From Candidatus Cloacimonadales bacterium (GTDB lineage: Bacteria > Cloacimonadota > Cloacimonadia > Cloacimonadales > JAIOQZ01): DNA of 64,000 nucleotides. The DNA lies in the NCBI GenBank assembly GCA_963674825.1, contig OY771587.1, positions 928,001 to 992,000 on the forward strand, written 5' to 3'. The notes beneath the pieces are model-generated. The model was not told where the DNA came from, did no database searches, and saw nothing but the letters and a program-made list of their open reading frames with translations. The translations under genes and the position numbers were made by a program. Of the stretch, positions 1,101-63,680 are shown piece after piece (the stretch's first letter is position 1; the number at the start of each line of letters is the position of its first letter).

Positions 1101-2342
1101 TCATATCTTTCTTGGTGGATTGATTTTGATGGTCATCACAGCGCTGATGAGGCACAGAACGCCGCAGATGGAAAATGCCAGCGGGAAATTGCCCATGTCA
1201 CCGAGAACGCCGCCGAGGATCGGCCCGAAAATACCACCAGCACCATAAGCAAGAAAGACGAACGGGTAATTTTCACCCACGAATTTCGAGCCAAAGGTAT
1301 CGGCAGTGATCGTAGGGAATAGTGCGAACGCGCCGCCGTAATTGAATCCGATCAGCGTTGCCACAAGATAGAGCATCCAAGGTGTTCCCGCCATGTATGG
1401 GAACAGCAGCATGAAAATACCCTGGCTGGCAGCCATGATAATGATGGACGGCTTGCGTTTGAGCTTGTCGCTGAAGACGCCCCAAAGGATGCGACCCAGT
1501 CCGTTTGCAAGGCTGAAAAACACCGCCATTGCAGTACCGGAGATCGCAGCAGCAGCAGCGAGATCCAGTCCCTTATTCTGCAGCGCTTCCATGGGATAGA
1601 GCTTCATGAGCCCGATCGACATAAGGCCTGCCATCGCGTTGAATACAAATACAAGGAAAATCAGATAGAACGGAAGGGTTCGCAGCATTTCCCCGCTGCG
1701 TAGATCCTTTCCGGACGATACCGCTTTCGCACTATCAGTTTTCTTATTAACGGCTTCTTTCTGCTCTTTCGGGAAAACCATCCAGATGCTCCCGATTAAG
1801 ATAAGAATAGCGAATAGCACACCATAGACGATAAACGTTGTGGAGATGCTGTAGCGTTCGATCAGATGTCCCCATTGACCAGCAAGCTTCACCCAGACCA
1901 TTGCCCCGAAGCCGAAGCCAGCCACCGACAAACCGCTGATAAGTCCCTTCTTATCAGGAAACCAGCGGATTCCGACCGCGATCGGCACTACATAGCTGAT
2001 ACCGATACCGCCACCACCGATCAATCCGATGAAGATCAGAATCGGCCAGAACGATGTCCCGCCGAAGAGACCGCCCAGAATATAACCGGCTCCCATGGTG
2101 ATCGCCGAGATGATCGAAAGACGACGCGGTCCTACTTTCGCAAGTTTCTTTCCTGCCAGCACCATGACCACCGCGAAGCTCACCAGACCGACAGAGAAGA
2201 CGATCTGCGTCTGAACCTTGCTCCAGCCGATTGCTGTCAGATAAGGCGTAAATACCGACCACGCATAGATTGCACCCAGACAAAGCTGGATGAGAACTGC
2301 TCCGAAAATGACCAGCCAGCGATTCCCTTTGTTTTCAGTCAT
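1101..2342 (-). CDS. OFA (oxalate/formate antiporter) family MFS transporter
   Basis: QLCLGAIYAWSVF, RWFPDKKGLISG, ANGLGRILWG motifs; about 12 hydrophobic segments. Confidence 0.88.
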   Translation of the reverse strand: MTENKGNRWLVIFGAVLIQLCLGAIYAWSVFTPYLTAIGWSKVQTQIVFSVGLVSFAVVMVLAGKKLAKVGPRRLSIISAITMGAGYILGGLFGGTSFWPILIFIGLIGGGGIGISYVVPIAVGIRWFPDKKGLISGLSVAGFGFGAMVWVKLAGQWGHLIERYSISTTFIVYGVLFAILILIGSIWMVFPKEQKEAVNKKTDSAKAVSSGKDLRSGEMLRTLPFYLIFLVFVFNAMAGLMSIGLMKLYPMEALQNKGLDLAAAAAISGTAMAVFFSLANGLGRILWGVFSDKLKRKPSIIIMAASQGIFMLLFPYMAGTPWMLYLVATLIGFNYGGAFALFPTITADTFGSKFVGENYPFVFLAYGAGGIFGPILGGVLGDMGNFPLAFSICGVLCLISAVMTIKINPPRKI

Positions 2343-2355
2343 ACGCTGCTCCGGA

Positions 2356-3603
2356 CTACAGGCCGTACTTGTCGATGATTTCTTGCTTGGTCAATCCGAG
2401 AATACCGTATTTTTTACCAACTTTGATGAAGGCTTCCAGCGCTTTGTCGAGGTGTTCTCTTTCATGTGCGGCAGATATCTGCGTGCGGATACGAGCCTTG
2501 CCCTGCGGTACCACCGGGAAGAAGAAGCCGATCGCGTAGATGCCTTCGTCATACAGATCGCGGGAGAAATCCTGCGAAAGCTTGGCGTTGAAGAGCATTA
2601 CCGGCACGATAGGCGTATCACCTGGCTGAAGGACGAATCCTGCATCCTGAAGACCTTTGCGCCAGTATTCGGTATTGGCTTCCAACTTGTCGCGGCGTTC
2701 GGTGGTCTTGGAGAGAATCTCCAGAACCTTGAGCACACCGGAGACGACCACCGGAGCGATGGTGTTGGAGAAAAGGTACGGTCGCGCTTTCTGACGGCAC
2801 ATCTCCACGACTTCCTTACGACCGGATACACATCCGCCGGAAGCGCCACCAAGAGCCTTGCCAAAGGTTGTTGTGATAATATCGATCTTACCCATCACGC
2901 CGCATTTCTCGTGGGTTCCACGACCTGTCTTGCCGATGAAGCCAGTAGAATGGGAGTCGTCCACAAACAGCATAGCATCGTATTTCTCGCAGAGCGCGAC
3001 CATCTCGTCGAGCTTCGCGGTATCGCCGTCCATAGAGAACACACCGTCGGTGATGACTACTTTGAGCCGTTTATCGGCGTGCAGAATCAGCTTTTTCTCG
3101 AGATGCTTCATGTCGGAGTGCTTGAAGGTGTCGTGCATAGCTGGAGCCAGCCGGATACCGTCGATGATGGAGGCGTGTACCAGACGATCGGAAATCATCA
3201 CGTCCTCGTCGGTGAGGATCGCTTCAAAAACGCCGGCGTTGGCGTCCATGCAGGACGGGAAGAGGATGGTGTCTTCAGTGCCGAGGAAATCGCTCACGAG
3301 CTTTTCGAGCTTCTTGTGGATGTCCTGCGTACCACAGATGAAGCGTACGGATGACATACCGTAACCACGGGTGTCGAGACCTTCATGCGCGGCCTGGATC
3401 ACGTCCGGGTGACTGGAGAGCCCCAGATAGTTGTTGGCGCACATGTTGATTACTTTCTTGAGGCTGGATCCGGTGGGGAATTCCACCTCGATGTCCGCCG
3501 CCTGCGGTGAATGTATGAAGCGTTCCTGTTTGAAGATGCCTTTGTCATCGATCCCTTTGAGGGTATCCAGATAGACTTGTCTCACTTTGTCGCTGTAAGC
3601 CAT
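2356..3603 (-). CDS. kbl: Glycine C-acetyltransferase (2-amino-3-ketobutyrate CoA ligase)
   Basis: NMCANNYLGLSSHP, SVRFICGTQDIHK, TDGVFSMDG, TFGKALGGASGG (PLP Lys), ARIRTQISAAH. Confidence 0.93.
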   Translation of the reverse strand: MAYSDKVRQVYLDTLKGIDDKGIFKQERFIHSPQAADIEVEFPTGSSLKKVINMCANNYLGLSSHPDVIQAAHEGLDTRGYGMSSVRFICGTQDIHKKLEKLVSDFLGTEDTILFPSCMDANAGVFEAILTDEDVMISDRLVHASIIDGIRLAPAMHDTFKHSDMKHLEKKLILHADKRLKVVITDGVFSMDGDTAKLDEMVALCEKYDAMLFVDDSHSTGFIGKTGRGTHEKCGVMGKIDIITTTFGKALGGASGGCVSGRKEVVEMCRQKARPYLFSNTIAPVVVSGVLKVLEILSKTTERRDKLEANTEYWRKGLQDAGFVLQPGDTPIVPVMLFNAKLSQDFSRDLYDEGIYAIGFFFPVVPQGKARIRTQISAAHEREHLDKALEAFIKVGKKYGILGLTKQEIIDKYGL

Positions 3604-3751
3604 AGTGTCGCTCCTTGTAAGGTTTTAGTGTCGTTGCTTTGATTTGGGCTGAACCAAACTTCCGAATGTTTGGGTCAGACGTCTCGTATCGAGTACCCAT
3701 ATCAAAGCAACGATCCCGACCGAGGCTTAACCCCGGCCGGGTAAAAAGCTG

Positions 3752-4009
3752 TTACTGGCCGAGGTGCTTGAGCACGAGCTCGGTGATAAGGTTTACGTTG
3801 TCGAATGCTTCCGGGGTCGCTTCCTCGTCGGGAAGGCTGATTCCATATTTGTTTTCCAGGAAGCGTTTGAGTGATACCATCGAAAATGAATCGACCAGAC
3901 CACCGGATATAAGCGGTGTGTCGAATCCTACCTCATCATCATCGTCCTCTACATATTCTTCGATCACGTATTCGAGCACGACTTCCTTGATTTCTTCACG
4001 ATCTGCCAT
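3752..4009 (-). CDS. Acyl carrier protein (DltC-like, ACP1)
   Basis: Acidic 85 aa protein with LISGGLVDSFSMVSL phosphopantetheine-Ser motif. Confidence 0.9.
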   Translation of the reverse strand: MADREEIKEVVLEYVIEEYVEDDDDEVGFDTPLISGGLVDSFSMVSLKRFLENKYGISLPDEEATPEAFDNVNLITELVLKHLGQ

Positions 4010-4265
4010 AGTTGTTTCTCCTTCCTCGATTTATAGAGTTATTGCTTGGTTTTTTATACTTCATTCGATTCCCAGATTCGCACTGGATCATCACTCATCG
4101 GATTCCCGGACCAATTCATGTGAATCAAGTACCCATCCGTCAAATACTTTCAGCAAATCTTTGCACTTTATTCACCGTATGCAAAATCATCCGGGCGAGA
4201 TACCACCCGGATGACACCATATTATTCGCTAATCACATTACGTTTCAATCTCACGGTCGTTCTTA

Positions 4266-5018
4266 CTAGCGCTGGTTCATTACCTGATTTAGCAGAGTTC
4301 TGGCATGTTCATGGGGATCAATACTGCGTGCAAATGTACCCCAATTTGCAACATTGTAGGTGAATGAAAGGAATACCAAATCTCCAACCACCACCCAGTT
4401 TTCCTGATCGACCGACAAGTTTAGATATTCTGAAGTAGGATCGTTGAACCCGTGCAAGTTCGCTGCCAGCGTGTATGCTCTGAGTGCAGGGTCAATATAA
4501 ATTGAACCGATAGAGCGCGACTCGTCATCTGGGCCAAGGATGAACAGGGATTGTGCGTCGGAATTAGCTTCCAACGTCCAGGTCAATTCGTAATTTGTCT
4601 GTCCATCCCACGTATCATCGATATTGAGTGTAGGAATATAGGTCATCGTCAAAGTAGCAGTCTCGGCATAAGCGCCGTTGTTGATATCGAGATCGTAGGC
4701 ATAACTTTGGCCAGGCGTAAATTCGTAATTCGCCCACCATTCATTGTACATCTCCTGATAATACATCGAAACATCTTCGCCATCAATGGTAAGATTACAG
4801 GATTCAATGAGATCTGTCTCATCCAGCGCAAAAACGTAGATGTATCCATAACGGAACTCCGGACTTTGCGAGAATGTAACCGCATAGCGCCAGTCTGATG
4901 TAGGGGGCTGGGATATTCCGCCGCCGTTATCGTCGTCGTCATCGTCATCCGATGAGCAGGACACCATCATGCCCAATGCGAGCATCACGACAAGAAAGCC
5001 AATAATCAGTCGTTTCAT
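4266..5018 (-). CDS. Lipoprotein of unknown function (tandem paralog 5)
   Basis: Lipobox MMVSC; shared C-terminal motifs W.L....AQSL, R.YT, ENW...GD. Confidence 0.8.
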   Translation of the reverse strand: MKRLIIGFLVVMLALGMMVSCSSDDDDDDDNGGGISQPPTSDWRYAVTFSQSPEFRYGYIYVFALDETDLIESCNLTIDGEDVSMYYQEMYNEWWANYEFTPGQSYAYDLDINNGAYAETATLTMTYIPTLNIDDTWDGQTNYELTWTLEANSDAQSLFILGPDDESRSIGSIYIDPALRAYTLAANLHGFNDPTSEYLNLSVDQENWVVVGDLVFLSFTYNVANWGTFARSIDPHEHARTLLNQVMNQR

Positions 5019-5078
5019 TTGTTTCTCCTTGGTTGAGGGAGTTACAGTCTATATGCAGCAAAGGATAACGCCGCATTG

Positions 5079-5708
5079 TTATTTGTCATTTTCGATCATC
5101 CTCGAAAGCTGTTCTATCGTCCGCCTGGCAAGATCCAGTGGATTCAGCCTGTAATCAATGTATCCGTAGTTCTTCATTACACTCGTCTCTGCGACCACGT
5201 AGAATCCATCTTCCTCCGACCAGTTTTTTTCCTGAAGGTTGAAATGGATGAACTCGGTGGAAGGATCGTCGTAATCCATGAATCCGGCAGGAATAGAATA
5301 TCGCCGGTCTGACGGAAGCATATAAATTGTGGCAATGGGATCATCCCGAGCCGCGCCGGGGCCAACCACATACAGGGATTGCGTTCTCGCATTTCTTTGC
5401 AGCGACCATTCAAGCTGGAAATCGCTCTGACCATCCCAGGAATCAGGGAAGTTTGCGTCCGGGATATATGGCATCGTGAACGTCCCCGAGCGCTGATATG
5501 AATCGTTGATCACGACTACATACGAATATATGCTCCCCTGCACAAACGGATAGTAGGCCGAAACCGAATCCGAATCCCGGTAATATTCAAGCGGGACTTC
5601 TTCGATGATAACGCCGGTACTTCCACCACTGGAGCCATCGGAGCTACAGGAGATCACAAGGATCAGAATAAGCAAGAATGCGGTGAATGCAGTGGCAAAG
5701 CGATTCAT
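5079..5708 (-). CDS. Lipoprotein of unknown function (tandem paralog 4)
   Basis: Lipobox VISC; WSLQRNARTQSL, RRYS, EKNW motifs. Confidence 0.8.
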   Translation of the reverse strand: MNRFATAFTAFLLILILVISCSSDGSSGGSTGVIIEEVPLEYYRDSDSVSAYYPFVQGSIYSYVVVINDSYQRSGTFTMPYIPDANFPDSWDGQSDFQLEWSLQRNARTQSLYVVGPGAARDDPIATIYMLPSDRRYSIPAGFMDYDDPSTEFIHFNLQEKNWSEEDGFYVVAETSVMKNYGYIDYRLNPLDLARRTIEQLSRMIENDK

Positions 5709-5753
5709 GATATCTCCCGGATATGGATTGCATGGTCAGAAATTGCAATTTTA

Positions 5754-6425
5754 TCAATGACACGTCAATGATTTTTGTTCAGAAATCCTATCGTCGTTGC
5801 TTCCGTAGGCAAAGCTGTAGAAGAAGAATTCCCCGGAAGTCTCCCAATTGCACTCCACAAGTTGAATACTGATGGTCGATTCACCGGTGTAGCCGAAGAG
5901 CTCCGCGTCCATGGAATAGCTTCGATCCCTGGGATTCATATAAATGAGCGTCTTGTAGGGATAGGGGTCGTCGCGGCCAGTATCAGCGTTCTCGAAATAC
6001 AGATACTGGGTTCTGGCGTCTTTATCCATATTCCATTCAATTTTAGTATTCTCACCCGCGACGTATTCATGAGGAAATTCGCATTCCGGTTCGCAGGCAA
6101 TCGTCAGATCAGTAATTTGATGGTAAATGCCATTGACAGTGATTTCGATATTATAAGTCTCACCTTCCTGGAATGGATAATACGCGAAATCGCGGCTGCA
6201 GGTCACCTCTTCCCCATCAATCAGGATACAGAGACTATTGATTGGGATCGAGCCGGTGAGGACTACATAGATCATCTGGCTCTGTGCCGACGCATAGACG
6301 GCGAAGCTGGATTGCGTGATGTCGGGGAGTTGGTGGATAGGATTCTCTTCCTCGTCGGAATCGAAAAGGTTGCAAGACAATAGCAGAAGCGACAGTAACA
6401 GGGCCAGTATGAAGATGCGTAGCAT
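5754..6425 (-). CDS. Lipoprotein of unknown function (tandem paralog 3)
   Basis: Start reassigned to MLRIFILALLLSLLLLSC (AAGGAG RBS); WNMDKDARTQ, ECNW motifs. Confidence 0.8.
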   Translation of the reverse strand: MLRIFILALLLSLLLLSCNLFDSDEEENPIHQLPDITQSSFAVYASAQSQMIYVVLTGSIPINSLCILIDGEEVTCSRDFAYYPFQEGETYNIEITVNGIYHQITDLTIACEPECEFPHEYVAGENTKIEWNMDKDARTQYLYFENADTGRDDPYPYKTLIYMNPRDRSYSMDAELFGYTGESTISIQLVECNWETSGEFFFYSFAYGSNDDRISEQKSLTCH

Positions 6426-6457
6426 GGATAAGTACTCCTTCAGATTCAGTATTTCAT

Positions 6458-7138
6458 TTATCTGGATGATTGCGGTGTAAACTCCTCGGTATCGGCATTG
6501 TAGCTTATGAAATAGAAATCGCCTTGCTGGATCCAATTGTATTCGGTAATGCTGACACGGATATTGGTATCGCCGGAATAACTCACCATCTCGCCGTTGA
6601 ATGTAAAATCACGCTGCTCGACGGGGAGGTAGCTGTAGAGATCGGAGACGCAGAATACGCTGTCGGTATCCACGAAGTTCTCGATTAGAAGCATCTGCGT
6701 CTGGGCATCGCAGTCGAGACTCCATGTGATCTCCGTGTAAATGCCGATCTCGAGACTGTCCGGAATCGAAAGCTCCGGTTCGCACACCATGGTTAGATCG
6801 ACAACCTGTCGTTTTGTGTCGTTTATGTTCACATCGATGGTGTAGCACTGGTTTGGTTCGAATGGATAATCACCTTCAAAAAGCGCGTAGTCTGCGTTTC
6901 GCCGAACCATGAACACGTCCGAGCCATTGATGATTACCTGTAAATTACCGATCTCCAACTCCGTGAAAGTAAAGACGCATATCGAGCCCCACGGGTACGC
7001 AACGATGTTGATGGTTTCTTTGTTGGACGGTAACGGATTTTCCATAAAATCACGATTGTTCTCATCAAACAGAGTGCAGGAAACGAGGGCAGTGACAGCA
7101 ACAAGTATCAGTATGAGATTGGTGGGTAGATTTTTCAT
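6458..7138 (-). CDS. Lipoprotein of unknown function (tandem paralog 2)
   Basis: Lipobox LVSC; CEPELSIPDSLE, WSLDCDAQTQ, EYNWIQQGDF. Confidence 0.8.
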   Translation of the reverse strand: MKNLPTNLILILVAVTALVSCTLFDENNRDFMENPLPSNKETINIVAYPWGSICVFTFTELEIGNLQVIINGSDVFMVRRNADYALFEGDYPFEPNQCYTIDVNINDTKRQVVDLTMVCEPELSIPDSLEIGIYTEITWSLDCDAQTQMLLIENFVDTDSVFCVSDLYSYLPVEQRDFTFNGEMVSYSGDTNIRVSITEYNWIQQGDFYFISYNADTEEFTPQSSR

Positions 7139-7155
7139 GTAGGCAATACTCCATT

Positions 7156-7917
7156 TTATAGATTATCGGTGCGGGTTTTCCAAATTGTGTCAATGATCAT
7201 CTGTGTCCTTTTCATTCGTGCTTCAGGGCCGATATCTTTCATATTATACGAATGGTTCATGAACATATCATACGAATGGCTCATGAACCTGAAATCCCCC
7301 ACGATCTCCCAGTTATATTCTTCCAGGTCGATCGTCAGGTATGAATCGCCTGTGTGATGGAAGGTATCCGCGCTCAGCGTGTATTCGCGCTGTGAGCTGT
7401 GAACATAGACCATCTTCGCTTCGGGATTCTCCAGGCTGTCGGCGTTGGCGCTGTACAGGAAGCAGAAAACCTGGGTCTTCGCATCATGATCGAGGTCCCA
7501 CGTTAAATTCAAATCGACACCCTCTTCAAGCGAATCGGGAATCGCCAGCTCAGGGATGCATACCATTTTCAGATCGATCACACCATGATACTGATTATCG
7601 ACGGTAACATCGATGTGATAGACGCTGTTCGGCTGAAAATCGTAGAAACCTCCGAATCGAACCAGATTTCCGCTGTTCGCTGCCTCGTTTTCGATGTTTT
7701 GCCCATCGACAAATACACAAACAGTATCGACAGGCACATCCCAGTCACTGTATAAGGCAATGCTACCCCATTCTGGATGAACCGACACGATATAGGGTGA
7801 ATCGTCGACATAGGGAAGCGTGGTGATATCCGAATCGCTACTGTCATCGAACAAAGTACATGATGTCATGATGACACATAGGAAAATCACGATAATCTCA
7901 GGTAGATTACGAACCAT
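7156..7917 (-). CDS. Lipoprotein of unknown function (tandem paralog 1)
   Basis: Lipobox MTSC; CIPELAIPDSLE, WDLDHDAKTQ, EYNWEIVGDF; GGAGG RBS. Confidence 0.8.
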   Translation of the reverse strand: MVRNLPEIIVIFLCVIMTSCTLFDDSSDSDITTLPYVDDSPYIVSVHPEWGSIALYSDWDVPVDTVCVFVDGQNIENEAANSGNLVRFGGFYDFQPNSVYHIDVTVDNQYHGVIDLKMVCIPELAIPDSLEEGVDLNLTWDLDHDAKTQVFCFLYSANADSLENPEAKMVYVHSSQREYTLSADTFHHTGDSYLTIDLEEYNWEIVGDFRFMSHSYDMFMNHSYNMKDIGPEARMKRTQMIIDTIWKTRTDNL

Positions 7918-7968
7918 TTTGCACCTCCATTCTTGTGAGCTTCACTTAAAACGACAATTGAAATTCGA

Positions 7969-7996
7969 AATATGGTTAATAATAAATGAATGTCAA
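7969..7996 (-). promoter_or_regulatory. Putative sigma70 promoter of the lipoprotein array
   Basis: Minus-strand TTGACA (7996-7991), 16-bp spacer, CATATT. Confidence 0.45.
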
Positions 7997-8008
7997 CGTA
8001 TTTTCGGC

Positions 8009-8036
8009 AAAAAAAACCGGGCGATTGCTCGCCCGG
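8009..8036 (-). terminator. Rho-independent terminator after the acetate ligase gene
   Basis: CCGGGCGA-gcaa-TCGCCCGG hairpin followed by a T8 run on the minus strand. Confidence 0.8.
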
Positions 8037-8052
8037 ATATTTGACGCAATGT

Positions 8053-9759
8053 TTATTCGTCGTCTTCGAGGGTCGATGTGTCTCCAATCTCCTCGCCCCA
8101 CTCCTTCGCGTGAAGCAAGCGCCGCATGATTTTACCGCTGCGGGTTTTGGGCAGCGATTTGACGTATTCGGTCTCCTGCGGCATGGCGAGCGGCGAGAGT
8201 TTCTTGCGGATAAAATTCATGATCTTGAGCTCAAGATCCTTGGTCGGCTCGTAGCCTGGCTTCAGCACCACGAACGCTTTAACGACCTCCATGTTGACAT
8301 CGTCTGGCTTGGAAACGACTGCTGATTCCGCAACTGCTTCGTGTTCCAGCAGTGCAGATTCGACCTCGAACGGGCTCACCAGATGGCCGCCGGTGTTGAT
8401 CACATCGTCATCGCGACCCACGAACCAGAAGTATCCGTCCGAATCGATATAGGCACGGTCGCCGGGCAGATACCAGTTGTTCTGGAACTTACTCTGGTAG
8501 GTCGCTTCGTTGTTCCAGTAAGTCCGCATCATGGCTGGCCATCCCGGACGGAAAGCGATCAGGCCGATCTTGTCAGTCTCTTTGATCTCCTCGAATGTGG
8601 AGGTATCGACCAGACTTCCAGTGATGCCAGGGAATGGCCTTCCCATAGAGCCTGGCTTGATCTTCATGCCCGGGTAATTGGAGATCATGATGGAACCGGT
8701 CTCGGTCTGCCAGTAAGAATCGAGGAAAGCCCTGCCGAATACTTTTTCCGACCAGATCACCGCTTCTGGGTTGAGCGGTTCGCCCACGCTGGCCAGATGG
8801 CGAAGCGAGGATAGATCATACTTTCCAACCAATTCGTCGCCGGCTTTCATCAGCGAGCGAATAGCCGTTGGAGCGGAGTACCACACCGTAATGCCGTAGC
8901 GCTCGATAAACTGGTACCATGATTCCGCGGAAAAACCCGTATCAAGTACGCACTGTGTAACGCCGAGGCTCCAGGGGCCAATAATCCCGTAGGATGTGCC
9001 GGTTACCCAGCCAGGATCGGCGGTACACCAGTAAACGTCATCTTCATTGAGATCCAGAACCCACTTCGTAGTGAGATACTGCGAGATCAACGAGTAATGA
9101 ACGTGCTTAACGCCCTTGGGTTGGCCGGTGGTTCCGGAAGTGTAGTGTAATACTGACGGTGATTCGGCTTTGGTAGGATAAATCTCGAGATCCTGAATCT
9201 TGTCAGCCGTCTCCAGATCAAATGCCACTTCCCGCTCTTGGAGCGGTTTCTTGCCGTCGTAATCCACCACGATGATGTGTTTGAGGTAGGGTGTCTTCTC
9301 GAGAATTCTGCGTACTTTGTTGACGTGCTTTTTCTGGGTGATGATCGCGGTTGTCTCCGCGTTATCGAGCCTCACAAGCAGCGATTCGTCGCCAAATGCT
9401 GAGAAGAGCGGCTGCGCGATCGCTCCGATTTTGAGAACACCCAGAAAACCGATGTAGAGTTCGGGAATCTTGTCCATGAAGAGGCAGACGCGATCTTCAT
9501 TCTTGATTCCCAGGTTGCGAAGGAACTGTCCCACGGTATTGCTGGCGATTCTGATGTCGTTGAAAGTGTACTGCTTTTTCGCACCTCCGAGACCTTCCCA
9601 GTAGAGTGCGATACGGTTTCCGTTACCCTTCTCGCAGATTCTGTCACTACAATACCAGCCAATGTTAATTACGTTGCCGTCCTGGTATTCGAGTTCTTTT
9701 TCGGAAATGGACCAATCGAAGTTTTTGATGCGTTCATCATAGGATCCGATATTGGACAT
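8053..9759 (-). CDS. acsA: Acetate--CoA ligase family AMP-forming acyl ligase (AcsA type)
   Basis: YTSGTTGQPKG, WCTADPGWVTG, SVGEPLNPEA, WQTETG, LPKTRSGKIMRR. Confidence 0.88.
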   Translation of the reverse strand: MSNIGSYDERIKNFDWSISEKELEYQDGNVINIGWYCSDRICEKGNGNRIALYWEGLGGAKKQYTFNDIRIASNTVGQFLRNLGIKNEDRVCLFMDKIPELYIGFLGVLKIGAIAQPLFSAFGDESLLVRLDNAETTAIITQKKHVNKVRRILEKTPYLKHIIVVDYDGKKPLQEREVAFDLETADKIQDLEIYPTKAESPSVLHYTSGTTGQPKGVKHVHYSLISQYLTTKWVLDLNEDDVYWCTADPGWVTGTSYGIIGPWSLGVTQCVLDTGFSAESWYQFIERYGITVWYSAPTAIRSLMKAGDELVGKYDLSSLRHLASVGEPLNPEAVIWSEKVFGRAFLDSYWQTETGSIMISNYPGMKIKPGSMGRPFPGITGSLVDTSTFEEIKETDKIGLIAFRPGWPAMMRTYWNNEATYQSKFQNNWYLPGDRAYIDSDGYFWFVGRDDDVINTGGHLVSPFEVESALLEHEAVAESAVVSKPDDVNMEVVKAFVVLKPGYEPTKDLELKIMNFIRKKLSPLAMPQETEYVKSLPKTRSGKIMRRLLHAKEWGEEIGDTSTLEDDE

Positions 9760-9803
9760 AGCTTTCTCTCCTTCAGACGCGGCAGCGCCTGTGTCTTTAT
9801 TAT

Positions 9804-10202
9804 TTATAGTTCGAGTATAACCATTGCCATTGCCGTGGATTTCAAATGAGACAGCGAAACATGAATGGATTGAATTTTGTTCATTCGCACGAATTCGTCA
9901 ACCTTTCCATGCGTTTTTATCATTGGTTTGCCCAAATCATCGTTGGTAATCTCGATATCAGTAAACGTGACACCCTGCTGCCAGCCGGTTCCCAGCGCTT
10001 TCATCATCGCTTCTTTCGCTGCGAACCGGGCGGCGTAGCATTGGTCTTTCGATTTCCGGGATTCACACTCCCGAATCTCGTTATCGGTAAAAACCTTCTC
10101 GCGAAAGCCTTCCAGCTTGCTGATGCTTCTAAGGACTCGCTCCACTTCGATGTGGTCGATACCTACTCCAAAGATCAACTTGCCCTCTTCAGCATAGAAC
10201 AT
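9804..10202 (-). CDS. acpS: Holo-ACP synthase (4'-phosphopantetheinyl transferase)
   Basis: GVGIDHIE, AARFAAKEAMMKALGTG, VSLSH; true start may be the TTG of LIFGVG. Confidence 0.93.
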   Translation of the reverse strand: MFYAEEGKLIFGVGIDHIEVERVLRSISKLEGFREKVFTDNEIRECESRKSKDQCYAARFAAKEAMMKALGTGWQQGVTFTDIEITNDDLGKPMIKTHGKVDEFVRMNKIQSIHVSLSHLKSTAMAMVILEL

Positions 10203-10240
10203 CCAAAGATCAAGCGTACTCCTTCAGTATAGCTGACGGC

Positions 10241-11203
10241 TTACAGCTGACCGGCTTTGAGCCTGGCAGTGAGCTTCTCGATCATATCTTTGGTCATGGC
10301 AGCCGTATCGTATGCAGGCTTCCAATCCCATTCTTCTCTTGCAGCGGAGTCGTCCATGCTGTTTGGCCAGCTATCAGCGATCGCCTGACGAACCGGATCG
10401 ACATCGTAGTCCATGGTAAATCCGGGCATTTCTTTTCTAATCGCTGCCGCGAGTTCTTCGGGATCGAAGCTCATGGCGGTGACGTTGAAGGCGTTGCGAT
10501 GGATCAGCCTTGCAGGATCGGCCTCCATTACGTCGATCGCAGCCTTGAGGCAGTCCGGCATGTACATCATGTCCATGAGGGTCCCCTCTTTGATGTAGCA
10601 TGTGTAGTGACCAGTCTTCACTGCTTCATAGAAGATATGCACCGAATAATCGGTCGTACCACCACCGGGAGGCGTAACGCTGGAGATGATGCCCGGATAG
10701 CGAACACCGCGAGTATCGACGCCGAAGCGCTTGTGATAATAATCGCACAGCAATTCACCGGCGACTTTGGTAACGCCATAGATAGAGGTCGGACGTTGGA
10801 TGGTGTCCTGCGGTGTGTTGTCCGGAGGTGTGGTGGGGCCGAAAGCACCGATCGAGCTGGGAGTGAACACCGCTGCGCCGGTTTCCTTCGCGATAGTCAG
10901 CGTGTTCAAGAGACCGTTCATGTTGACGTTCCAGGCGACTTCCGGTCTCGCTTCCGCAACCGCGGAAAGGAGCGCTGCCAGATGATAGATCGTGTCTATT
11001 TTATGCTTCTTCACCACTTCGGCGAAGCGATTTGCGTCCAGGCAATCGATGACTTCATAGGGACCAGCCTCGACCAGGTCTCCGGTGAGGTCATTGCGGA
11101 TGTCGGACGCGACAACGTTTGATGCTCCGTAAATCTTACGAAGAGCTGCGACGAGTTCGGTTCCAATCTGCCCTGCGGCACCAGTTACAAGAATGTTTTT
11201 CAA
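10241..11203 (-). CDS. tdh: L-threonine 3-dehydrogenase, SDR/GalE-like type
   Basis: LVTGAAGQIG, PSSIGAFG, YGVTK, PGGGTTDY, MMYMPD, RQAIADSWP: signatures of SDR-type ThrDH. Confidence 0.88.
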   Translation of the reverse strand: MKNILVTGAAGQIGTELVAALRKIYGASNVVASDIRNDLTGDLVEAGPYEVIDCLDANRFAEVVKKHKIDTIYHLAALLSAVAEARPEVAWNVNMNGLLNTLTIAKETGAAVFTPSSIGAFGPTTPPDNTPQDTIQRPTSIYGVTKVAGELLCDYYHKRFGVDTRGVRYPGIISSVTPPGGGTTDYSVHIFYEAVKTGHYTCYIKEGTLMDMMYMPDCLKAAIDVMEADPARLIHRNAFNVTAMSFDPEELAAAIRKEMPGFTMDYDVDPVRQAIADSWPNSMDDSAAREEWDWKPAYDTAAMTKDMIEKLTARLKAGQL

Positions 11204-40312: not shown

Positions 40313-40471
40313 TTAGAAGTTGGCGTAGAAGAAAGGGTTCGATTCCACAGCCATGACGGTAATCAACGCTTTCGCCGCGATCGCCGAGAATAGTAGTGTA
40401 AATATATACGTCACCCTAAGATAGAGCCAGAGATTTTTACTGCTTCGGATACGCTTGAATAAACGATTCAT
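40313..40471 (-). CDS. DltX-like small membrane acyl-shuttle peptide (52 aa)
   Basis: Hand translation MNRLFKRIRSSKNLWLYLRVTYIFTLLFSAIAAKALITVMAVESNPFFYANF*; AGGAG RBS; overlaps the SGNH gene 3' end; single TM; C-terminal FFYANF. Confidence 0.85.
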   Translation of the reverse strand: MNRLFKRIRSSKNLWLYLRVTYIFTLLFSAIAAKALITVMAVESNPFFYANF

Positions 40472-41417
40472 AAATGAATTCTCCTAATTTATAATTACCA
40501 CTTTCGTTCAGATGTCCTACACCCTTCAATCGATTTTCTGATCCTGAAATCTCAGCAGAATTGAAGAAGAGGATTCCTTCAGTATTACAAAAATCGCGTA
40601 GTAATTTATTTTCAAGCTCATTCTGACTAAAGAATACAAGCATGAAATCATGCCCATAATCCTTCTGGAATTGTAATAATGTAGCCTTTAAACCTTCAGG
40701 TAGCACGGATACTTGTTCAGAATCATCCTCGCTCCCTACATTATCTGTATTATCATCGACAACGTTGCCTTTGAAACGTTTTGCGTAATTATAACAAAGA
40801 GAAGCAAGACTCGATCGGCTACAAATCGCTTCAACTATCAGTCGAGCTTTTGAGAAGGGAAAATTCTCGCCAAAGTGATCCGGTAGATCAAACGACAAAG
40901 GCTGTTCGTGACGAGAGAGCCATTTAGTACGTAAATGCTCTAGGGCAAGCACAACTTTATCAGGCTTACGGTACTTTTGAGTGAAGAGTTTAACACGAAA
41001 GTATGCCATATAAGGATCATGTCCGGATGCTCCAAGATTGAATACAGAATACTGGGGATTATATTCCTGGAGTTTACGATTGAATACCGCAGCAGCCGTT
41101 TTCCTGATCGGAACCTGATACGCCTCAATATATGACGATCCGGCAAGAAAAACCAGCTTTGTATTATCAGCTAAGTTTACTTCCGGACCATGAATGCCAA
41201 CATTGTTACGCCAGAAACGCTTGTAACCTGCTTCGATATTGAGATACTTCGAGTTCGGCTCATACATGTATACTTTGTGGTAGGAATGCCCCTTTGGGAA
41301 AAAGTAAATCGGCTTCCTAACTGGCTGTGGCGGATATAACACAATGAAGCGAAGAATAAGTTCCACTGTAATCAACGCGGTAATGATACCCAGTAGAAAA
41401 AGAACCATTTTTCTCAT
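40437..41417 (-). CDS. Membrane-anchored SGNH-like acyltransferase (DltD/AlgJ-like), copy 2
   Basis: N-terminal TM, LAGSSYIE, NLGASG, GHLNESGN; ATGA-coupled to the MBOAT stop. Confidence 0.75.
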   Translation of the reverse strand: MRKMVLFLLGIITALITVELILRFIVLYPPQPVRKPIYFFPKGHSYHKVYMYEPNSKYLNIEAGYKRFWRNNVGIHGPEVNLADNTKLVFLAGSSYIEAYQVPIRKTAAAVFNRKLQEYNPQYSVFNLGASGHDPYMAYFRVKLFTQKYRKPDKVVLALEHLRTKWLSRHEQPLSFDLPDHFGENFPFSKARLIVEAICSRSSLASLCYNYAKRFKGNVVDDNTDNVGSEDDSEQVSVLPEGLKATLLQFQKDYGHDFMLVFFSQNELENKLLRDFCNTEGILFFNSAEISGSENRLKGVGHLNESGNYKLGEFIYESFIQAYPKQ

Positions 41418-42541
41418 CTGAACCACATCCAGCCAATTGTAACAAACGTGAATGTAACCAGCCCCATCAGGATCTGATAGCTCATCGCTTTGGGTGTCTT
41501 GATCTTACGCTGGCGCTTGTAATTCACCCAAAGCTGATACACAGCGATACCCACGCCGTGCCAGATTCCCCAATACATGAAGTTCCATGCTGCGCCATGC
41601 CACAAACCGCATGCAGCCATCGTGATGATCGGCACGCATACCAGAGACCAGAACTTTTTCCGGCTCACACGGCTCAGCGGGAAGAAAAGGTAATCCCGAA
41701 TCCACTCCGACAACGATATGTGCCAGGTAGCCCAAAAGCGACTCATGTTGGTACGGAAATAGGGATTATTGAAGTTCTCCATGATCTTCAAGCCCATAAT
41801 CCGTGAAGAACCGATCGCGATATCTGAATAACCCGCGAAGTCAGCATATATCTGAATGGAATACCCCAACAAAGCGACGATTCGCAGCCAGATTGACGCG
41901 CTGTCCCACCAGGGTTGAATGAAATAGCCAATCCAGTCGGCAATAACCAGTTTCTTGAACAAACCGTACACGATTCGCTGGAAACCGTACCAAACGTTCT
42001 GCCAGCTCTGGTGGTTCTCCTGCATCTGTGGTTGAAACCGTGAGAACCTCTCGATAGGCCCCGCAACGAAGATAGTGAACAGCGAACTATAGCTGAGAAG
42101 CTCGAAAAACGTACCGCGTTTGGTGATCTTCCAGTTGAGATCAGCAAGATAGCTGATGTGTTTGAAGGTCAGATAGGAAATACCCAACGGCAGAAGCAGA
42201 TTCTCAATTTTAAAATCGGGAAGGCTGGACACGAATTGAGTTAGTTGACTCAGTGTTCCGGTAAGCAGTCCGAGGTATTTGAAGACAATCAACGAACCGA
42301 GTACGCCCAGGATGCCGATTTTCAGGAAAACTGGTTTTTTAAAACGCTCCAGAAGCCAGGCAAACAAATACGTCCAGATCGTCAGACACACCGTAACAAT
42401 GGCTGCCGATCGATCCAGATAGGCGATAAATCCCAGACTCGCAACGCTCAGGAACGCAGCCCGTACGTGTCGCCATGGAATTGCGCGAAACAAGAGGGCA
42501 ACCAAGATCAGATAGGCGAAAAAATGAATGCTAACGATCAT
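41414..42541 (-). CDS. MBOAT O-acyltransferase (DltB/AlgI-like)
   Basis: PLGISYLTF, AGPIER, YADFAGYSDIAIG, ENFNNPY, FWATWHISLS, GLWHG. Confidence 0.93.
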   Translation of the reverse strand: MIVSIHFFAYLILVALLFRAIPWRHVRAAFLSVASLGFIAYLDRSAAIVTVCLTIWTYLFAWLLERFKKPVFLKIGILGVLGSLIVFKYLGLLTGTLSQLTQFVSSLPDFKIENLLLPLGISYLTFKHISYLADLNWKITKRGTFFELLSYSSLFTIFVAGPIERFSRFQPQMQENHQSWQNVWYGFQRIVYGLFKKLVIADWIGYFIQPWWDSASIWLRIVALLGYSIQIYADFAGYSDIAIGSSRIMGLKIMENFNNPYFRTNMSRFWATWHISLSEWIRDYLFFPLSRVSRKKFWSLVCVPIITMAACGLWHGAAWNFMYWGIWHGVGIAVYQLWVNYKRQRKIKTPKAMSYQILMGLVTFTFVTIGWMWFR

Positions 42542-42548
42542 GAGATGA

Positions 42549-42779
42549 TCAGTACCTTTCGATGATTTCGATCATCTGCTTGACGGTATCGAATGATTCC
42601 GCAGTGATAACCGGTGCAGGTACCCTTTTCCCGAACTCTGTCTCGATAAACTGCTGAAGCGACACCAGCGAAAAGGAATCGATCAATCCCGATGAGATCA
42701 ACTTCGTATCTTCGTCGATGACGACATCGTCGTCTTCCACAAACTCGTCATAGATAAATTCAATCAGTTTCTCTTTCAT
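42549..42779 (-). CDS. Acyl carrier protein (DltC-like, ACP2)
   Basis: LISSGLIDSFSLVSL; paralog of 3752-4009. Confidence 0.9.
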   Translation of the reverse strand: MKEKLIEFIYDEFVEDDDVVIDEDTKLISSGLIDSFSLVSLQQFIETEFGKRVPAPVITAESFDTVKQMIEIIERY

Positions 42780-42864: not shown

Positions 42865-43899
42865 TTATTCTACATGCGCCTTATTAGTTGTTGATACAGA
42901 GGGCAATTCATCGGTGTCTCGTGTCATTAAAAAAGTTTTTTGAAATGCAACGTTAAGAAATTCACCAAGCTTTGCATTGCCTTCACGTGTAAGGTGGCCA
43001 TCCCCATTGAAACGAGATTCTGGTTTTAAAATCTCTTCATTGTATTCGTAATTAATGCCATTCATCCGGCAGAAGCTATCAAGTAATTCATTTGCCTCAT
43101 GGCAATCATTAAAAGAAACAAGCAGAAAATCTTTACCATATGTTCTTTGAAATTGTAACAGAGATTCCTTTAGTGCATCAGATAACTCTGGAGTACAAGG
43201 AACTTCACTATACCCATCAGCTATTTCATTATTCACTTCTCTTATACGTTTTGGAAGCGACATTATCGATCGCGCAATCAGATTAATGAAGCTGGAATGG
43301 TGACGTACTTGAGCAGCTAGGCGATATAATCTTGAATACCCGATTTCCTCTCCAAAACGCTCTGGGAGAGTGAAATCTAATGGATATTCATGCCGTTTCA
43401 GCCATTCGTCATACGTACCCTCTATTGCCAGAATGATTTTATCAGGTTCATAGAATTTTGAATAAAATTGAGTCTTGAACCACAATGTATACGGATCATT
43501 TCCTGAGCCTCCTAGGTTGAGAACGCTATAGTCAGGATATTGCTGCTTCAACTCCTTATCGAATACTGACGTAGCTGTTTCTGTTCTACTGACCTGAAAT
43601 GCTTCGATGAACGACGAACCAATCAAGAAAATGTACCGATGATAGGTACTGGAATCAAAATCGGGGCCATTCAATCCGATATTATTCAATTTGAATTTTC
43701 TATTACCACCCTCAACATTCCAGAATTCATAATACGCATCATGTATTTTTATTTTCTGAGTTTTCGCACCATCTCTTCGATAAACAAACTGCCGGCTACT
43801 AAAACCAACAGGATAATTTACTGCAAACCGAACCAGTAGTTCAACAACAATCAAAGCGGTTAATGCTCCCAAGAAAATTAACAATATCTTTCTGATCAT
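42865..43899 (-). CDS. Membrane-anchored SGNH-like acyltransferase (DltD/AlgJ-like), copy 1
   Basis: N-terminal TM, LIGSSFIE, NLGGSG, DGHLTREGN; paralog of 40437-41417. Confidence 0.75.
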   Translation of the reverse strand: MIRKILLIFLGALTALIVVELLVRFAVNYPVGFSSRQFVYRRDGAKTQKIKIHDAYYEFWNVEGGNRKFKLNNIGLNGPDFDSSTYHRYIFLIGSSFIEAFQVSRTETATSVFDKELKQQYPDYSVLNLGGSGNDPYTLWFKTQFYSKFYEPDKIILAIEGTYDEWLKRHEYPLDFTLPERFGEEIGYSRLYRLAAQVRHHSSFINLIARSIMSLPKRIREVNNEIADGYSEVPCTPELSDALKESLLQFQRTYGKDFLLVSFNDCHEANELLDSFCRMNGINYEYNEEILKPESRFNGDGHLTREGNAKLGEFLNVAFQKTFLMTRDTDELPSVSTTNKAHVE

Positions 43900-45824: not shown

Positions 45825-47003
45825 TTACAGCAGTCCTACTTCCTTGCCCACCATGTAGAATTTTTCCAGCGCGAAATCGAGCTGCTCACGGGTGTGCGTG
45901 GCCATGAAGCTGCAACGGATCAGCGTGTCGTTCGGCGCAACAGCCGGCGGGATCACCGGGTTGATAAAGACGCCTTCTTCGTCCAGACGCTTCCACATTT
46001 GGAATGCGGTCATCATCTCGCCCACATGCAGCGGGATCACCGGTGTGTTGGAGGTTCCGGTCTCGTAACCCATATCCTTGAATGATTTTAGCATGTAGTT
46101 GGTGTTTTCCCAGAGCTTTTCGATTCGCTCCGGTTCGCTCTCGATGATGTCCAGCGCAGCGAGCACGGATGCTGCTGATGCAGGTGGTAGTGACGCGCTG
46201 AAAATGAGCGCGCGTGAGAAATGCTTGAGATAGTGTATAATTTCTTCATCCGCGGCGATAAATCCGCCCACGGAGGCAAGTGATTTGCTGAAAGTACCCA
46301 TGATGATCTCGGTGTCATTCACCGCGTCGAAATAGCGAGCGCATCCAGCGCCGCTTTCGTGCAAGACGCCCAGCGAGTGCGCTTCATCGATCATCAGACC
46401 AAAGTTGTATTTCTTCTTAAGTTCGAGGATTCCGGGGATATCCGCGATGTCGCCTTCCATGCTGAAGATACCATCCACCACGACAAGCGCATTAGCGCCT
46501 TCAGCCTTGATCAGAGTCTTTTCAAGGCTTTCGATGTCGTTGTGATTGTAGCGCAGCATCTTACCCATGGAGAGCCGGCAGCCATCGATAATGGAAGCAT
46601 GATCGAGCTTATCGGTGACGATGAATTCGTTCTTGTTCACGATCGCGGAAATCGCACCAACATTCGCCTGATATCCAGTGGCGAATACAAGAGCTGCCTC
46701 TTTGCCCACGAACTGTGCCAGTCTTTTCTCCAGCTCGATGTGAATATCAAGCGTACCGTTCAGAAACCGAGATCCGGCGCAACCGGAGCCATATTTGTCG
46801 ATTGCATCCTGCGCAGCCTTCTTGACTTTCGGATGTGTAGTAAGACCCAGATAGCTGTTGGAGCCCATCATCAGCATTTTCTTGCCGTTGACCAGCACTT
46901 CAGTTTCCTGCTCGGTGGAGATAATACGAAAGTACGGATAGTAACCCAGCGCCATGACTTCTCTGGCGCGCGTGAAATTCTTGCATTTGTCTATGATACT
47001 CAT
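45825..47003 (-). CDS. spt: Serine palmitoyltransferase-like alpha-oxoamine synthase
   Basis: YPYFR, GSNSYLGLT, GSGCAGSRFLNGTLDIH, GTFSKSLAS; resembles Bacteroidota SPT more than BioF or Kbl. Confidence 0.7.
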   Translation of the reverse strand: MSIIDKCKNFTRAREVMALGYYPYFRIISTEQETEVLVNGKKMLMMGSNSYLGLTTHPKVKKAAQDAIDKYGSGCAGSRFLNGTLDIHIELEKRLAQFVGKEAALVFATGYQANVGAISAIVNKNEFIVTDKLDHASIIDGCRLSMGKMLRYNHNDIESLEKTLIKAEGANALVVVDGIFSMEGDIADIPGILELKKKYNFGLMIDEAHSLGVLHESGAGCARYFDAVNDTEIIMGTFSKSLASVGGFIAADEEIIHYLKHFSRALIFSASLPPASAASVLAALDIIESEPERIEKLWENTNYMLKSFKDMGYETGTSNTPVIPLHVGEMMTAFQMWKRLDEEGVFINPVIPPAVAPNDTLIRCSFMATHTREQLDFALEKFYMVGKEVGLL

Positions 47004-62936: not shown

Positions 62937-63680
62937 TTAGTAGAGCCTGAACTTAATCACCACCACGCCAACGAGGTGAACGTCCATTGGTGAATCCTCG
63001 TCGAGCACGATGACATTGTAGTCTTTGTTGAATGGGAGAAGGAGTACTTGCTTGTTCTTCGGCACGAGCTGCACCTTTTTCAGCGTGATGCCATCATCGG
63101 TTCGAACAGCGCACACCTTGCCATCGAGACTCATCCAGTCGTAGTTGTAATGGATGACCACGATGTCGCCATGATGGATGTTCGGCTCCATGCTGTGACC
63201 GTTCACTCGAAATACGCAGTAGTTCACCGTATCACTCGAAAGGAACACGCGCGGAATTTCGATGTACGCGAGGCTGTCCTTCTTCACTTTGACGGGTGGC
63301 CCTGCCGCAATCTCCGCTTCCACCGGCAGACTCACCGTTCGACTGAAGTAGTTGTCCGAAGGATTGTAGGGACGACCGTCGATAGTCTTGACCGTGTGCT
63401 TGAGCATTTCAAGCCGCTTCTTCCTGCCGTCCTCGGTCTCGAGTAACGCTTCGGGGAAGGGTTCGATGAACATCGAACCTTGTCCTGTGAGCAACCAGTT
63501 CATGTTCACGGCATGCATTTCGCAAATACGAACCAGCGCATCGATGGATGGTTTGCTCTTCTTCTTGTCAGAGAGCCAGTCCGAGAGGTTTCCGGTTGAT
63601 ACGCCGATTGATGACGCAAAATCCATCTTTTTCATTTCTAACGACTTAACTACAGCCGCCAATCTGTCTTTTACTTCCAT
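62937..63680 (-). CDS. Phage-type repressor: XRE HTH + S24 peptidase (CI/LexA-like)
   Basis: FASSIGVSTGNLSDW HTH, NMNWLLTGQG, IAAG cleavage site, VNGHSMEP, ITLKK. Confidence 0.92.
   Translation of the reverse strand: MEVKDRLAAVVKSLEMKKMDFASSIGVSTGNLSDWLSDKKKSKPSIDALVRICEMHAVNMNWLLTGQGSMFIEPFPEALLETEDGRKKRLEMLKHTVKTIDGRPYNPSDNYFSRTVSLPVEAEIAAGPPVKVKKDSLAYIEIPRVFLSSDTVNYCVFRVNGHSMEPNIHHGDIVVIHYNYDWMSLDGKVCAVRTDDGITLKKVQLVPKNKQVLLLPFNKDYNVIVLDEDSPMDVHLVGVVVIKFRLY

Follow-up and report, generated by a model that had tools for sequence, protein, structure and literature searches.

The window analysed here, a 64,000-nucleotide stretch of contig OY771587.1 of Candidatus Cloacimonadales bacterium, encodes in one cluster an AMP-forming acetate ligase, a glycine C-acetyltransferase (Kbl) and a dedicated acyl carrier protein (ACP1), and 39 kb away a paralogous carrier (ACP2) in a cassette with a short DltB-like membrane acyltransferase (MBOAT). 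This raises the question of which enzyme, if either, charges these carriers. The initial annotation of the window had proposed that Kbl and/or the ligase supplies acetyl-ACP to the MBOAT cassette. The six minus-strand genes on which it drew (Tdh, AcpS, ligase, ACP1, Kbl and a transporter) are confirmed by family scans and a match in the Protein Data Bank (PDB), and its approximate count of identical residues between ACP1 and ACP2 proved exact (Table 1). Its interpretation finds partial support, appearing right about Kbl and wrong about the ligase. The reading that we regard as probable is that this Kbl reversibly moves acetyl between 2-amino-3-ketobutyrate (AKB) and holo-ACP, serving the ligase via ACP1 and a Dlt-type system of MBOAT, microprotein and SGNH enzyme via ACP2. 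Below, the Kbl paralog tied to carrier proteins is termed the carrier-linked Kbl, the orthodox enzyme the housekeeping Kbl, the ligase tied to ACP1 the ACP1-linked ligase, and the MBOAT of the ACP2 cassette the short MBOAT.

Distribution of the carrier-linked Kbl and the ligase

Co-occurrence was analysed in 177 genomes of the phylum, each at least 85% complete, among which related genomes and neighbouring gene copies inflate the tests through kinship. Of the 54 genomes that encode ACP1, ACP2 or both, 52 contain a single carrier-linked Kbl, which is missing from all 123 genomes with neither carrier. The two genomes without a counted copy are G092, where the contig ends inside the kbl gene, and G176, where another oxoamine synthase occupies the slot. 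A whole carrier-linked Kbl is found in 24 of the 25 ACP2 genomes, the copy in the 25th being cut by the contig end, and, among the 141 ligase-free genomes, in 17/18 with ACP2 versus 0/123 without it. The ligase shows no such pattern. It occurs together with the short MBOAT in seven of the 177 genomes, against 5.3 expected (p 0.43; two versus 2.9 expected within family f3), and is not present in 18/25 ACP2 genomes. Since only seven ACP2 genomes have the ligase, it does not appear to be the loader of the cassette. The comparison of the two loci across genomes that the initial annotation had called for thus bears out the link to Kbl and not that to the ligase.

In 13 of the 18 ligase-free ACP2 genomes the kbl gene directly adjoins ACP2, while G105 carries a cassette-type copy elsewhere. 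Three further genomes (G057, G062 and G063) encode a module-type Kbl immediately 5' of the housekeeping kbl gene, with ACP2 and the short MBOAT present and neither ligase nor ACP1; four congeners without ACP2 have no carrier-linked Kbl at that site. The seven cassettes in genomes with the ligase, including that of the window, contain no kbl gene. A housekeeping Kbl, counted at a threshold of E 1e-160, is also encoded in 16/18 ligase-free cassette genomes, so the carrier-linked enzyme is an extra one. On metagenome contigs, 78 of 80 ACP2 loci were annotated (the open reading frame (ORF) caller missed the ACP in the other two, and some loci derive from the same organisms), with kbl within three genes in 26 and MBOAT in 64. 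In quick IQ-TREE and FastTree phylogenies, calculated without clade tests, the cassette-type and module-type Kbl form sister clades separate from the housekeeping Kbl, and the three orphan copies fall inside the module clade. On the short MBOAT tree (FastTree), the distribution of cassettes with their own Kbl and with a Kbl in trans takes three changes, at least two of them forced. Most simply, ACP2 would depend on a carrier-linked Kbl, and the cassette in the window would use the one in this cluster in trans.

When the ACP1 alignment was scanned over GTDB species genomes at least 593 relatives were found, the best 80 loci of which span Bacteroidota, Aminicenantes, Zixibacteria, Delongbacteria, Elusimicrobia and other taxa. 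The 77 annotated loci (the ORF caller missed the ACP in three) encode the ligase in 74 cases, the carrier-linked Kbl in 75, AcpS in 54, the housekeeping Kbl in 27, Tdh in 18, SatP in nine and an MFS transporter or a sodium/solute symporter in four each, with no MBOAT within 9 kb of ACP1 at any of them. The conserved unit is thus ligase-ACP1-Kbl, here called the module, rather than the six genes that had been described as one cluster. The MFS transporter (4/77) and Tdh (18/77, and present in 165 of the 177 phylum genomes) were rejected as dedicated parts. ACP1 is 70-92% identical over six families, and the DSFS motif is found in 98/98 ACP1 and 69/69 ACP2 sequences. The ACP1-linked ligase and ACP1 occur in an identical set of 36/177 genomes, on one contig in 35. 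This ligase and other Acs genes (36 versus 28 genomes) never share a genome where 5.7 such cases are expected, a test again inflated by kinship, which suggests that the module fills the role of an acetyl-CoA synthetase. The kbl gene is repeatedly followed by a gene for acetate uptake (SatP) or a solute symporter. The oxoamine synthase that follows the ligase and ACP1 in G176 (L261:7711-9018) is around 40% identical and falls below all family cut-offs.

Residue patterns, proposed route and competing explanations

The active-site residues of the Cupriavidus necator Kbl are N52, V81, H138, S187, H215, K246, L274, F275 and R370 (PMC9814548). Eight of these are kept in 118/118 carrier-linked Kbl sequences and the pyridoxal phosphate (PLP) lysine pattern in 117/118, for which reason glycine/AKB chemistry is likely; the glycine-sized pocket is also unchanged. 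The position 14 residues after the catalytic His is Arg or Lys in 7/118 carrier-linked versus 42/42 housekeeping sequences and is then followed by Asp in 118/118 of the former. A fixed offset from this His, assuming no indel, equates it with Lys156 of ALAS, a contact of the ribose of coenzyme A (CoA) (PMC4615937). The motif DRL(V/I)HAS is likewise found in 118/118 carrier-linked sequences. These patterns suggest that the carrier protein may be used instead of CoA. A predicted complex of the Kbl dimer with ACP2 scored 0.27 against a mark of 0.32 and is counted neither for nor against. The cassette and orphan copies also exceed the TIGR01822 cut-off, and SPT (serine palmitoyltransferase) models fall far below theirs (312 versus 640). 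The ACP1-linked ligase also retains the Val-Thr and Val residues that presumably line its pocket. Its short-chain pocket tryptophan (Trp414 equivalent; PMC6122825) is kept in 84/87 sequences by pattern, with three unmatched, while the arginine of motif A8 (PMC11255334) is replaced by Leu in 87/87, giving GHL for GER.

The Kbl reaction involves no decarboxylation and runs both ways, the thiol taking the acyl part of AKB alone. A Kbl acting on ACP could therefore load acetyl and little else, and the carrier-linked enzyme would interconvert AKB plus holo-ACP and glycine plus acetyl-ACP, where the textbook Kbl uses CoA. In the module, the ligase would interconvert acetate plus ATP and acetyl-ACP1, so that free CoA would not be needed to connect acetate with the AKB/glycine/threonine node. 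Its net role is probably akin to that of an acetyl-CoA synthetase, with acetate taken in and AKB passed to the housekeeping Kbl or Tdh. The direction from acetate via acetyl-ACP1 to AKB is favoured because of the uptake-type transporters and the exclusion of ordinary Acs; operation in reverse with a gain of ATP is possible and reportedly has a precedent in Syntrophus. An Rfam scan found no match in positions 1-47500 of the window and two tRNAs only in eight related loci, so that no glycine riboswitch indicates the direction. Threonine synthesis is not favoured as the purpose of the module. Strong ThrC matches (E below 1e-68, a line drawn by hand, with weaker paralogs in most genomes) occur in 15/36 module genomes versus 27/141 others, and replacement of threonine synthase by the module, one of the candidates considered, is unsupported.

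In the cassette, ACP2 would be loaded with acetyl from AKB by the same Kbl. In ligase-free genomes with ACP2 the enzyme would have to run from AKB to acetyl-ACP2. The AKB could derive from threonine via Tdh, or from acetyl-CoA and glycine via the housekeeping Kbl; among the 18 ligase-free ACP2 genomes, 16 encode the latter and 17 Tdh, with at least one in each. The threonine-fed route of the initial annotation is thereby kept as one possible source, without Tdh being a dedicated part. The short MBOAT would then transfer the acetyl group through the membrane onto the FxYxxF tyrosine of the microprotein, and an SGNH enzyme would move it from there to a glycan of the cell surface. Such an acceptor is suggested by glycosyltransferase, nucleotide-sugar or flippase genes beside ACP2 in nine of ten loci, which were chosen by eye out of 25; the cassette in the window has no polysaccharide-synthesis gene neighbours. 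The MBOAT system would thus probably acetylate the cell surface, fed by one Kbl-loaded carrier. We see an even chance that the fuller scheme holds, in which the carrier-linked Kbl is an ATP-independent, PLP-dependent loader of ACP2, threonine, or acetyl-CoA through a glycine relay, feeds Dlt-type trans-envelope acylation, and the module handles acetate on a private carrier.

Several observations weigh against this reading. The 13 co-occurrences of adjoining genes are physical neighbours travelling together, so Fisher values overstate the association, and the unlinked cases come down to one genus, G105 and the seven module genomes. The cassette-type and module-type Kbl may have diverged in partner choice. 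AckA and several other ACPs are encoded in the genome of the window. No classical Kbl is found at the above threshold in 15/36 module genomes, which weakens the relay to acetyl-CoA. The G143 genome, which has the short MBOAT, was found to contain neither ACP2 nor the carrier-linked Kbl. The ligase keeps the equivalents of the CoA-binding residues Phe163 and Arg584, so CoA use is possible; the former is a CoA adenine contact (PMC6122825). The ALAS equivalence draws on sequence only, and in ALAS itself Lys156 can be replaced by His, Thr or other residues (PMC4615937).

The same genes could be arranged to opposite effect, with the carrier-linked Kbl consuming acyl-ACP and glycine to give threonine (through a reversed Tdh) or an aminoketone, in the manner of AasR-AcpR-SPT, and with the tie to the MBOAT reflecting other chemistry or another acyl group. 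The combination of ligase, ACP and oxoamine synthase is indeed the architecture of that system (PMC9386255), Tdh is encoded at some of the ACP1 loci, and condensation in the module would fit the acetate uptake genes. A consuming enzyme would, however, leave the 18 ACP2 genomes without the ligase with no evident loader, the one DltA-like ligase next to an ACP2 (in G108) having its own ACP. The unchanged glycine-sized pocket and the commonness of strong ThrC matches in module genomes also count against it, the latter weakening the reverse, threonine-making alternative raised in the initial annotation. We consider this role unlikely.

Loading by the ligase, either as a DltA substitute acetylating ACP2 directly from acetate and ATP or by way of ACP1 handing acetyl to the MBOAT, would accord with the paralogy of the two carriers, which have ten invariant columns in common, and with the loading of carriers by adenylating ligases in Dlt and, in this genome, in a third cassette. 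It is a possible second route in the seven genomes with both ligase and cassette. Replacement of DltA was nevertheless rejected on the chance-level overlap with the short MBOAT and the 18 ligase-free ACP2 genomes, to which the lack of any MBOAT near ACP1 is added, leaving this explanation very improbable. Little probability is likewise attached to ordinary metabolism, in which both enzymes use CoA to degrade threonine and exchange acetate, the ACPs are unrelated or regulatory and the MBOAT takes acetyl-CoA, as PatA does directly (PMC12148441). Both enzymes pass the curated cut-offs of CoA-using families, and G143 has the short MBOAT without ACP2. What this leaves unexplained is the near-perfect pairing of ACP and carrier-linked Kbl in two gene contexts, the additional presence of a housekeeping Kbl and the fixed substitutions near the CoA site. 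Loading of ACP2 by the carrier-linked Kbl remains the preferred reading.

The cassette and other features of the window

Table 1. Positions of the features of the cluster and of the ACP2-MBOAT cassette in the window
Feature	Position	Strand	Remarks
MFS monocarboxylate-type transporter	1101..2342	-	NF049980 'L-lactate MFS transporter' 326.5 vs 320
Carrier-linked Kbl, glycine C-acetyltransferase paralog	2356..3603	-	TIGR01822 580.4 vs cut-off 493
ACP1-kbl spacer	3604..3751	-	strong folding, z -7.70, 0/200 shuffles; single copy in genome
ACP1, dedicated carrier protein	3752..4009	-	DSFS attachment motif, Ser41; weak ACP family matches
Five paralogous lipoprotein-like genes	4266..7917	-	between ligase and ACP1; 24-35% mutual identity
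Individual lipoprotein-like ORFs	4266-5018, 5079-5708, 5754-about 6425, 6458-7138, 7156-7917	-	
Terminator-like hairpin 3' of ligase	8017..8036	-	8-bp stem, 7 GC pairs, 8 T; spacer z -2.74
ACP1-linked ligase, AMP-forming acetate ligase, B. subtilis AcsA type	8053..9759	-	PRK04319 759.8 bits vs cut-off 729
AcpS phosphopantetheinyl transferase	9804..10202	-	TIGR00516 96.5 vs cut-off 59.8; single tblastn match in genome
Tdh, SDR-type L-threonine 3-dehydrogenase	10241..11203	-	best PDB match 7OL1, E 5.9e-133, residues 1-313
DltX-like microprotein, 52 aa	40313..40471	-	ends in FxYxxF acyl-shuttle motif
SGNH-like periplasmic transferase A	40437..41426	-	37% identical to transferase B
Short MBOAT, DltB-like membrane acyltransferase	41414..42541	-	PF03062; WHG motif; no fused C-terminal shuttle motif
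ACP2, carrier of MBOAT cassette	42549..42779	-	33/76 identical to ACP1 (BLASTP E 5e-16); 25/177 genomes
SGNH-like periplasmic transferase B	42865..43899	-	ESM Atlas first matches GDSL-like clusters, 0.96; no Pfam match

The short MBOAT subfamily is encoded in 26/177 genomes, namely the 25 with ACP2 and G143, where MBOAT, SGNH protein and microprotein lie inside a polysaccharide cluster (L278:7871-10096). The microprotein is conserved with MBOATs of 375-383 aa, and the FxYxxF motif is fused to the MBOAT where this is 451-481 aa long. The G-x-S and G-H motifs of the two transferases are invariant among 20 aligned homologs. The DltB and DltC models score below their cut-offs (186.5 versus 375 and 31.5 versus 68, respectively), and the cassette in the window contains no adenylating DltA-type loader. 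The third cassette of this genome (L045:9665-13781; G000:C1 about 3369600-3373800) encodes an ACP, an SGNH-like protein, an MBOAT, its own AMP-forming ligase and a microprotein of 39 aa with an FxYxxF end. An orphan SGNH gene (L287:8991-9962; G000:C1 about 1517000) marks the site where three congeners carry the ACP2-MBOAT cassette, which suggests that the cassette in the window has moved. The cassette is tandemly duplicated in G001 and G002. In G108 (L088:11544-16516) the ACP2-MBOAT genes are followed directly by genes for a DltA-like adenylation enzyme, a GNAT protein, an ACP and a long MBOAT; the DltA-like enzyme, at first sight an exception to the pattern, is thus accompanied by an ACP of its own. 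Two genes upstream of the cassette in the window, at 45825-47003, lies a serine-palmitoyltransferase-like gene (NF047600, 582 versus cut-off 640), and no counterpart of it adjoins ACP2 at the relatives' loci inspected.

Within the cluster, Tdh, the only close copy in the genome, and AcpS look like housekeeping genes, the former being a possible source or sink of AKB. The start of AcpS is likely the TTG at 10178, giving 124 aa as in relatives. Its ribosome-binding site and first codons lie in a tandem duplicate (~10170-10235), the second copy of which leads to the 124-aa protein. The lipoprotein-like array, which the initial annotation had not mentioned, has no Pfam or NCBIfam matches, and the ESM Atlas places it next to unnamed clusters from Cloacimonadota and Bacteroidota. 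Four to seven copies are found in three congeners, the site is empty of them in most other families, and the gap between ligase and ACP1 is filled by unrelated insertions in other lineages; the array thus appears to lie outside the conserved module. Of the hairpins and terminators suggested to split the cluster, a strong terminator-like hairpin does lie after the ligase. Such sites show no clear excess overall (terminator-like 13 versus 11.7±3.3 in shuffles; promoter-like 23 versus 16.4±3.4). The spacer between ACP1 and kbl matches no Rfam family and does not belong to a repeat family; a TIR-domain gene occupies this site in G002 (L028:10238-11272). The transporter, previously assigned to the OFA family, falls short of the OFA model (TIGR00890, 215.2 versus 374.85). 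In relatives a SatP-type (NF038013) transporter or a sodium/solute symporter takes its place, and it is apparently a local passenger of the cluster. Elsewhere in the window, an ORF at 62937-63680 is repressor-like (by eye, a helix-turn-helix and a peptidase S24 domain). Its counterpart in G001 (L030:17333-18076), identical over the first 45 residues, sits 3 kb past the module and beside a possible transposase.

Implications and comparison with known systems

The known loaders of carriers for envelope acylation are ATP-using ligases. Those oxoamine synthases known to us that use ACP are confined to unloading. If a reversible Kbl served as the loader, this would represent a novel mode of carrier charging and link acetylation of the surface to threonine/glycine metabolism. 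Given the at least 593 ACP1 relatives, the genes annotated as acetyl-CoA synthetase and glycine C-acetyltransferase would then work without CoA in hundreds of anaerobe genomes, with consequences for metabolic models of digesters and sediments. A full-text literature search, covering main texts and few subscription papers, found no description of the module or of a link between the carrier-linked Kbl, ACP and MBOAT.

The module and cassette appear to be variants on known kinds of system, the comparative evidence for which is strong. The cassette resembles Dlt (DltA, DltC, DltB, DltX and DltD) in its carrier, short MBOAT, separate FxYxxF microprotein and SGNH-like transferase (PMC12148441). It differs in the PLP enzyme that would take the place of the adenylating DltA, in its predicted cargo of acetyl rather than D-alanine, in a host that is not a Firmicute and in the sub-threshold DltB and DltC matches. 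In PatA/PatB and AlgI/AlgJ an MBOAT similarly passes acetyl via the FxYxxF tyrosine to an SGNH enzyme. PatA, however, uses acetyl-CoA, and the MBOAT/SGNH pathways other than Dlt described in PMC12148441, where the acyl-shuttle motif is defined, lack the carrier and microprotein found here.

The module recalls the AasR-AcpR-SPT system of Rhodobacteria, in which an acyl-CoA-synthetase-like ligase and a dedicated ACP accompany an oxoamine synthase that prefers acyl-ACP (PMC9386255), the corresponding genes being likewise encoded together at nearly all ACP1 loci. Here the acyl group would have two carbons rather than a long chain and no sphingolipid product is implied, while Kbl chemistry keeps the carboxyl group and is reversible, and could thus both load and unload the carrier. 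Acceptance of either CoA or ACP thioesters has been described for AONS (PMC11906848). The closest solved relative of the ligase is Bacillus subtilis AcsA (PRK04319; PDB 9G79; E 7e-174), with which it shares an acetate-sized pocket, and from which it differs in its constant association with ACP1 and the GHL variant of motif A8. Finally, the carrier-linked Kbl shares its fold family and active-site residues with the Kbl of the Tdh-Kbl pair (Escherichia coli 1FC4, C. necator 7BXP), and Tdh is encoded upstream here, whereas its separate clade, 5-residue insert, C-terminal extension and DRL(V/I)HAS motif, together with a second, orthodox Kbl (56%) in the same genome, set it apart from that pair.

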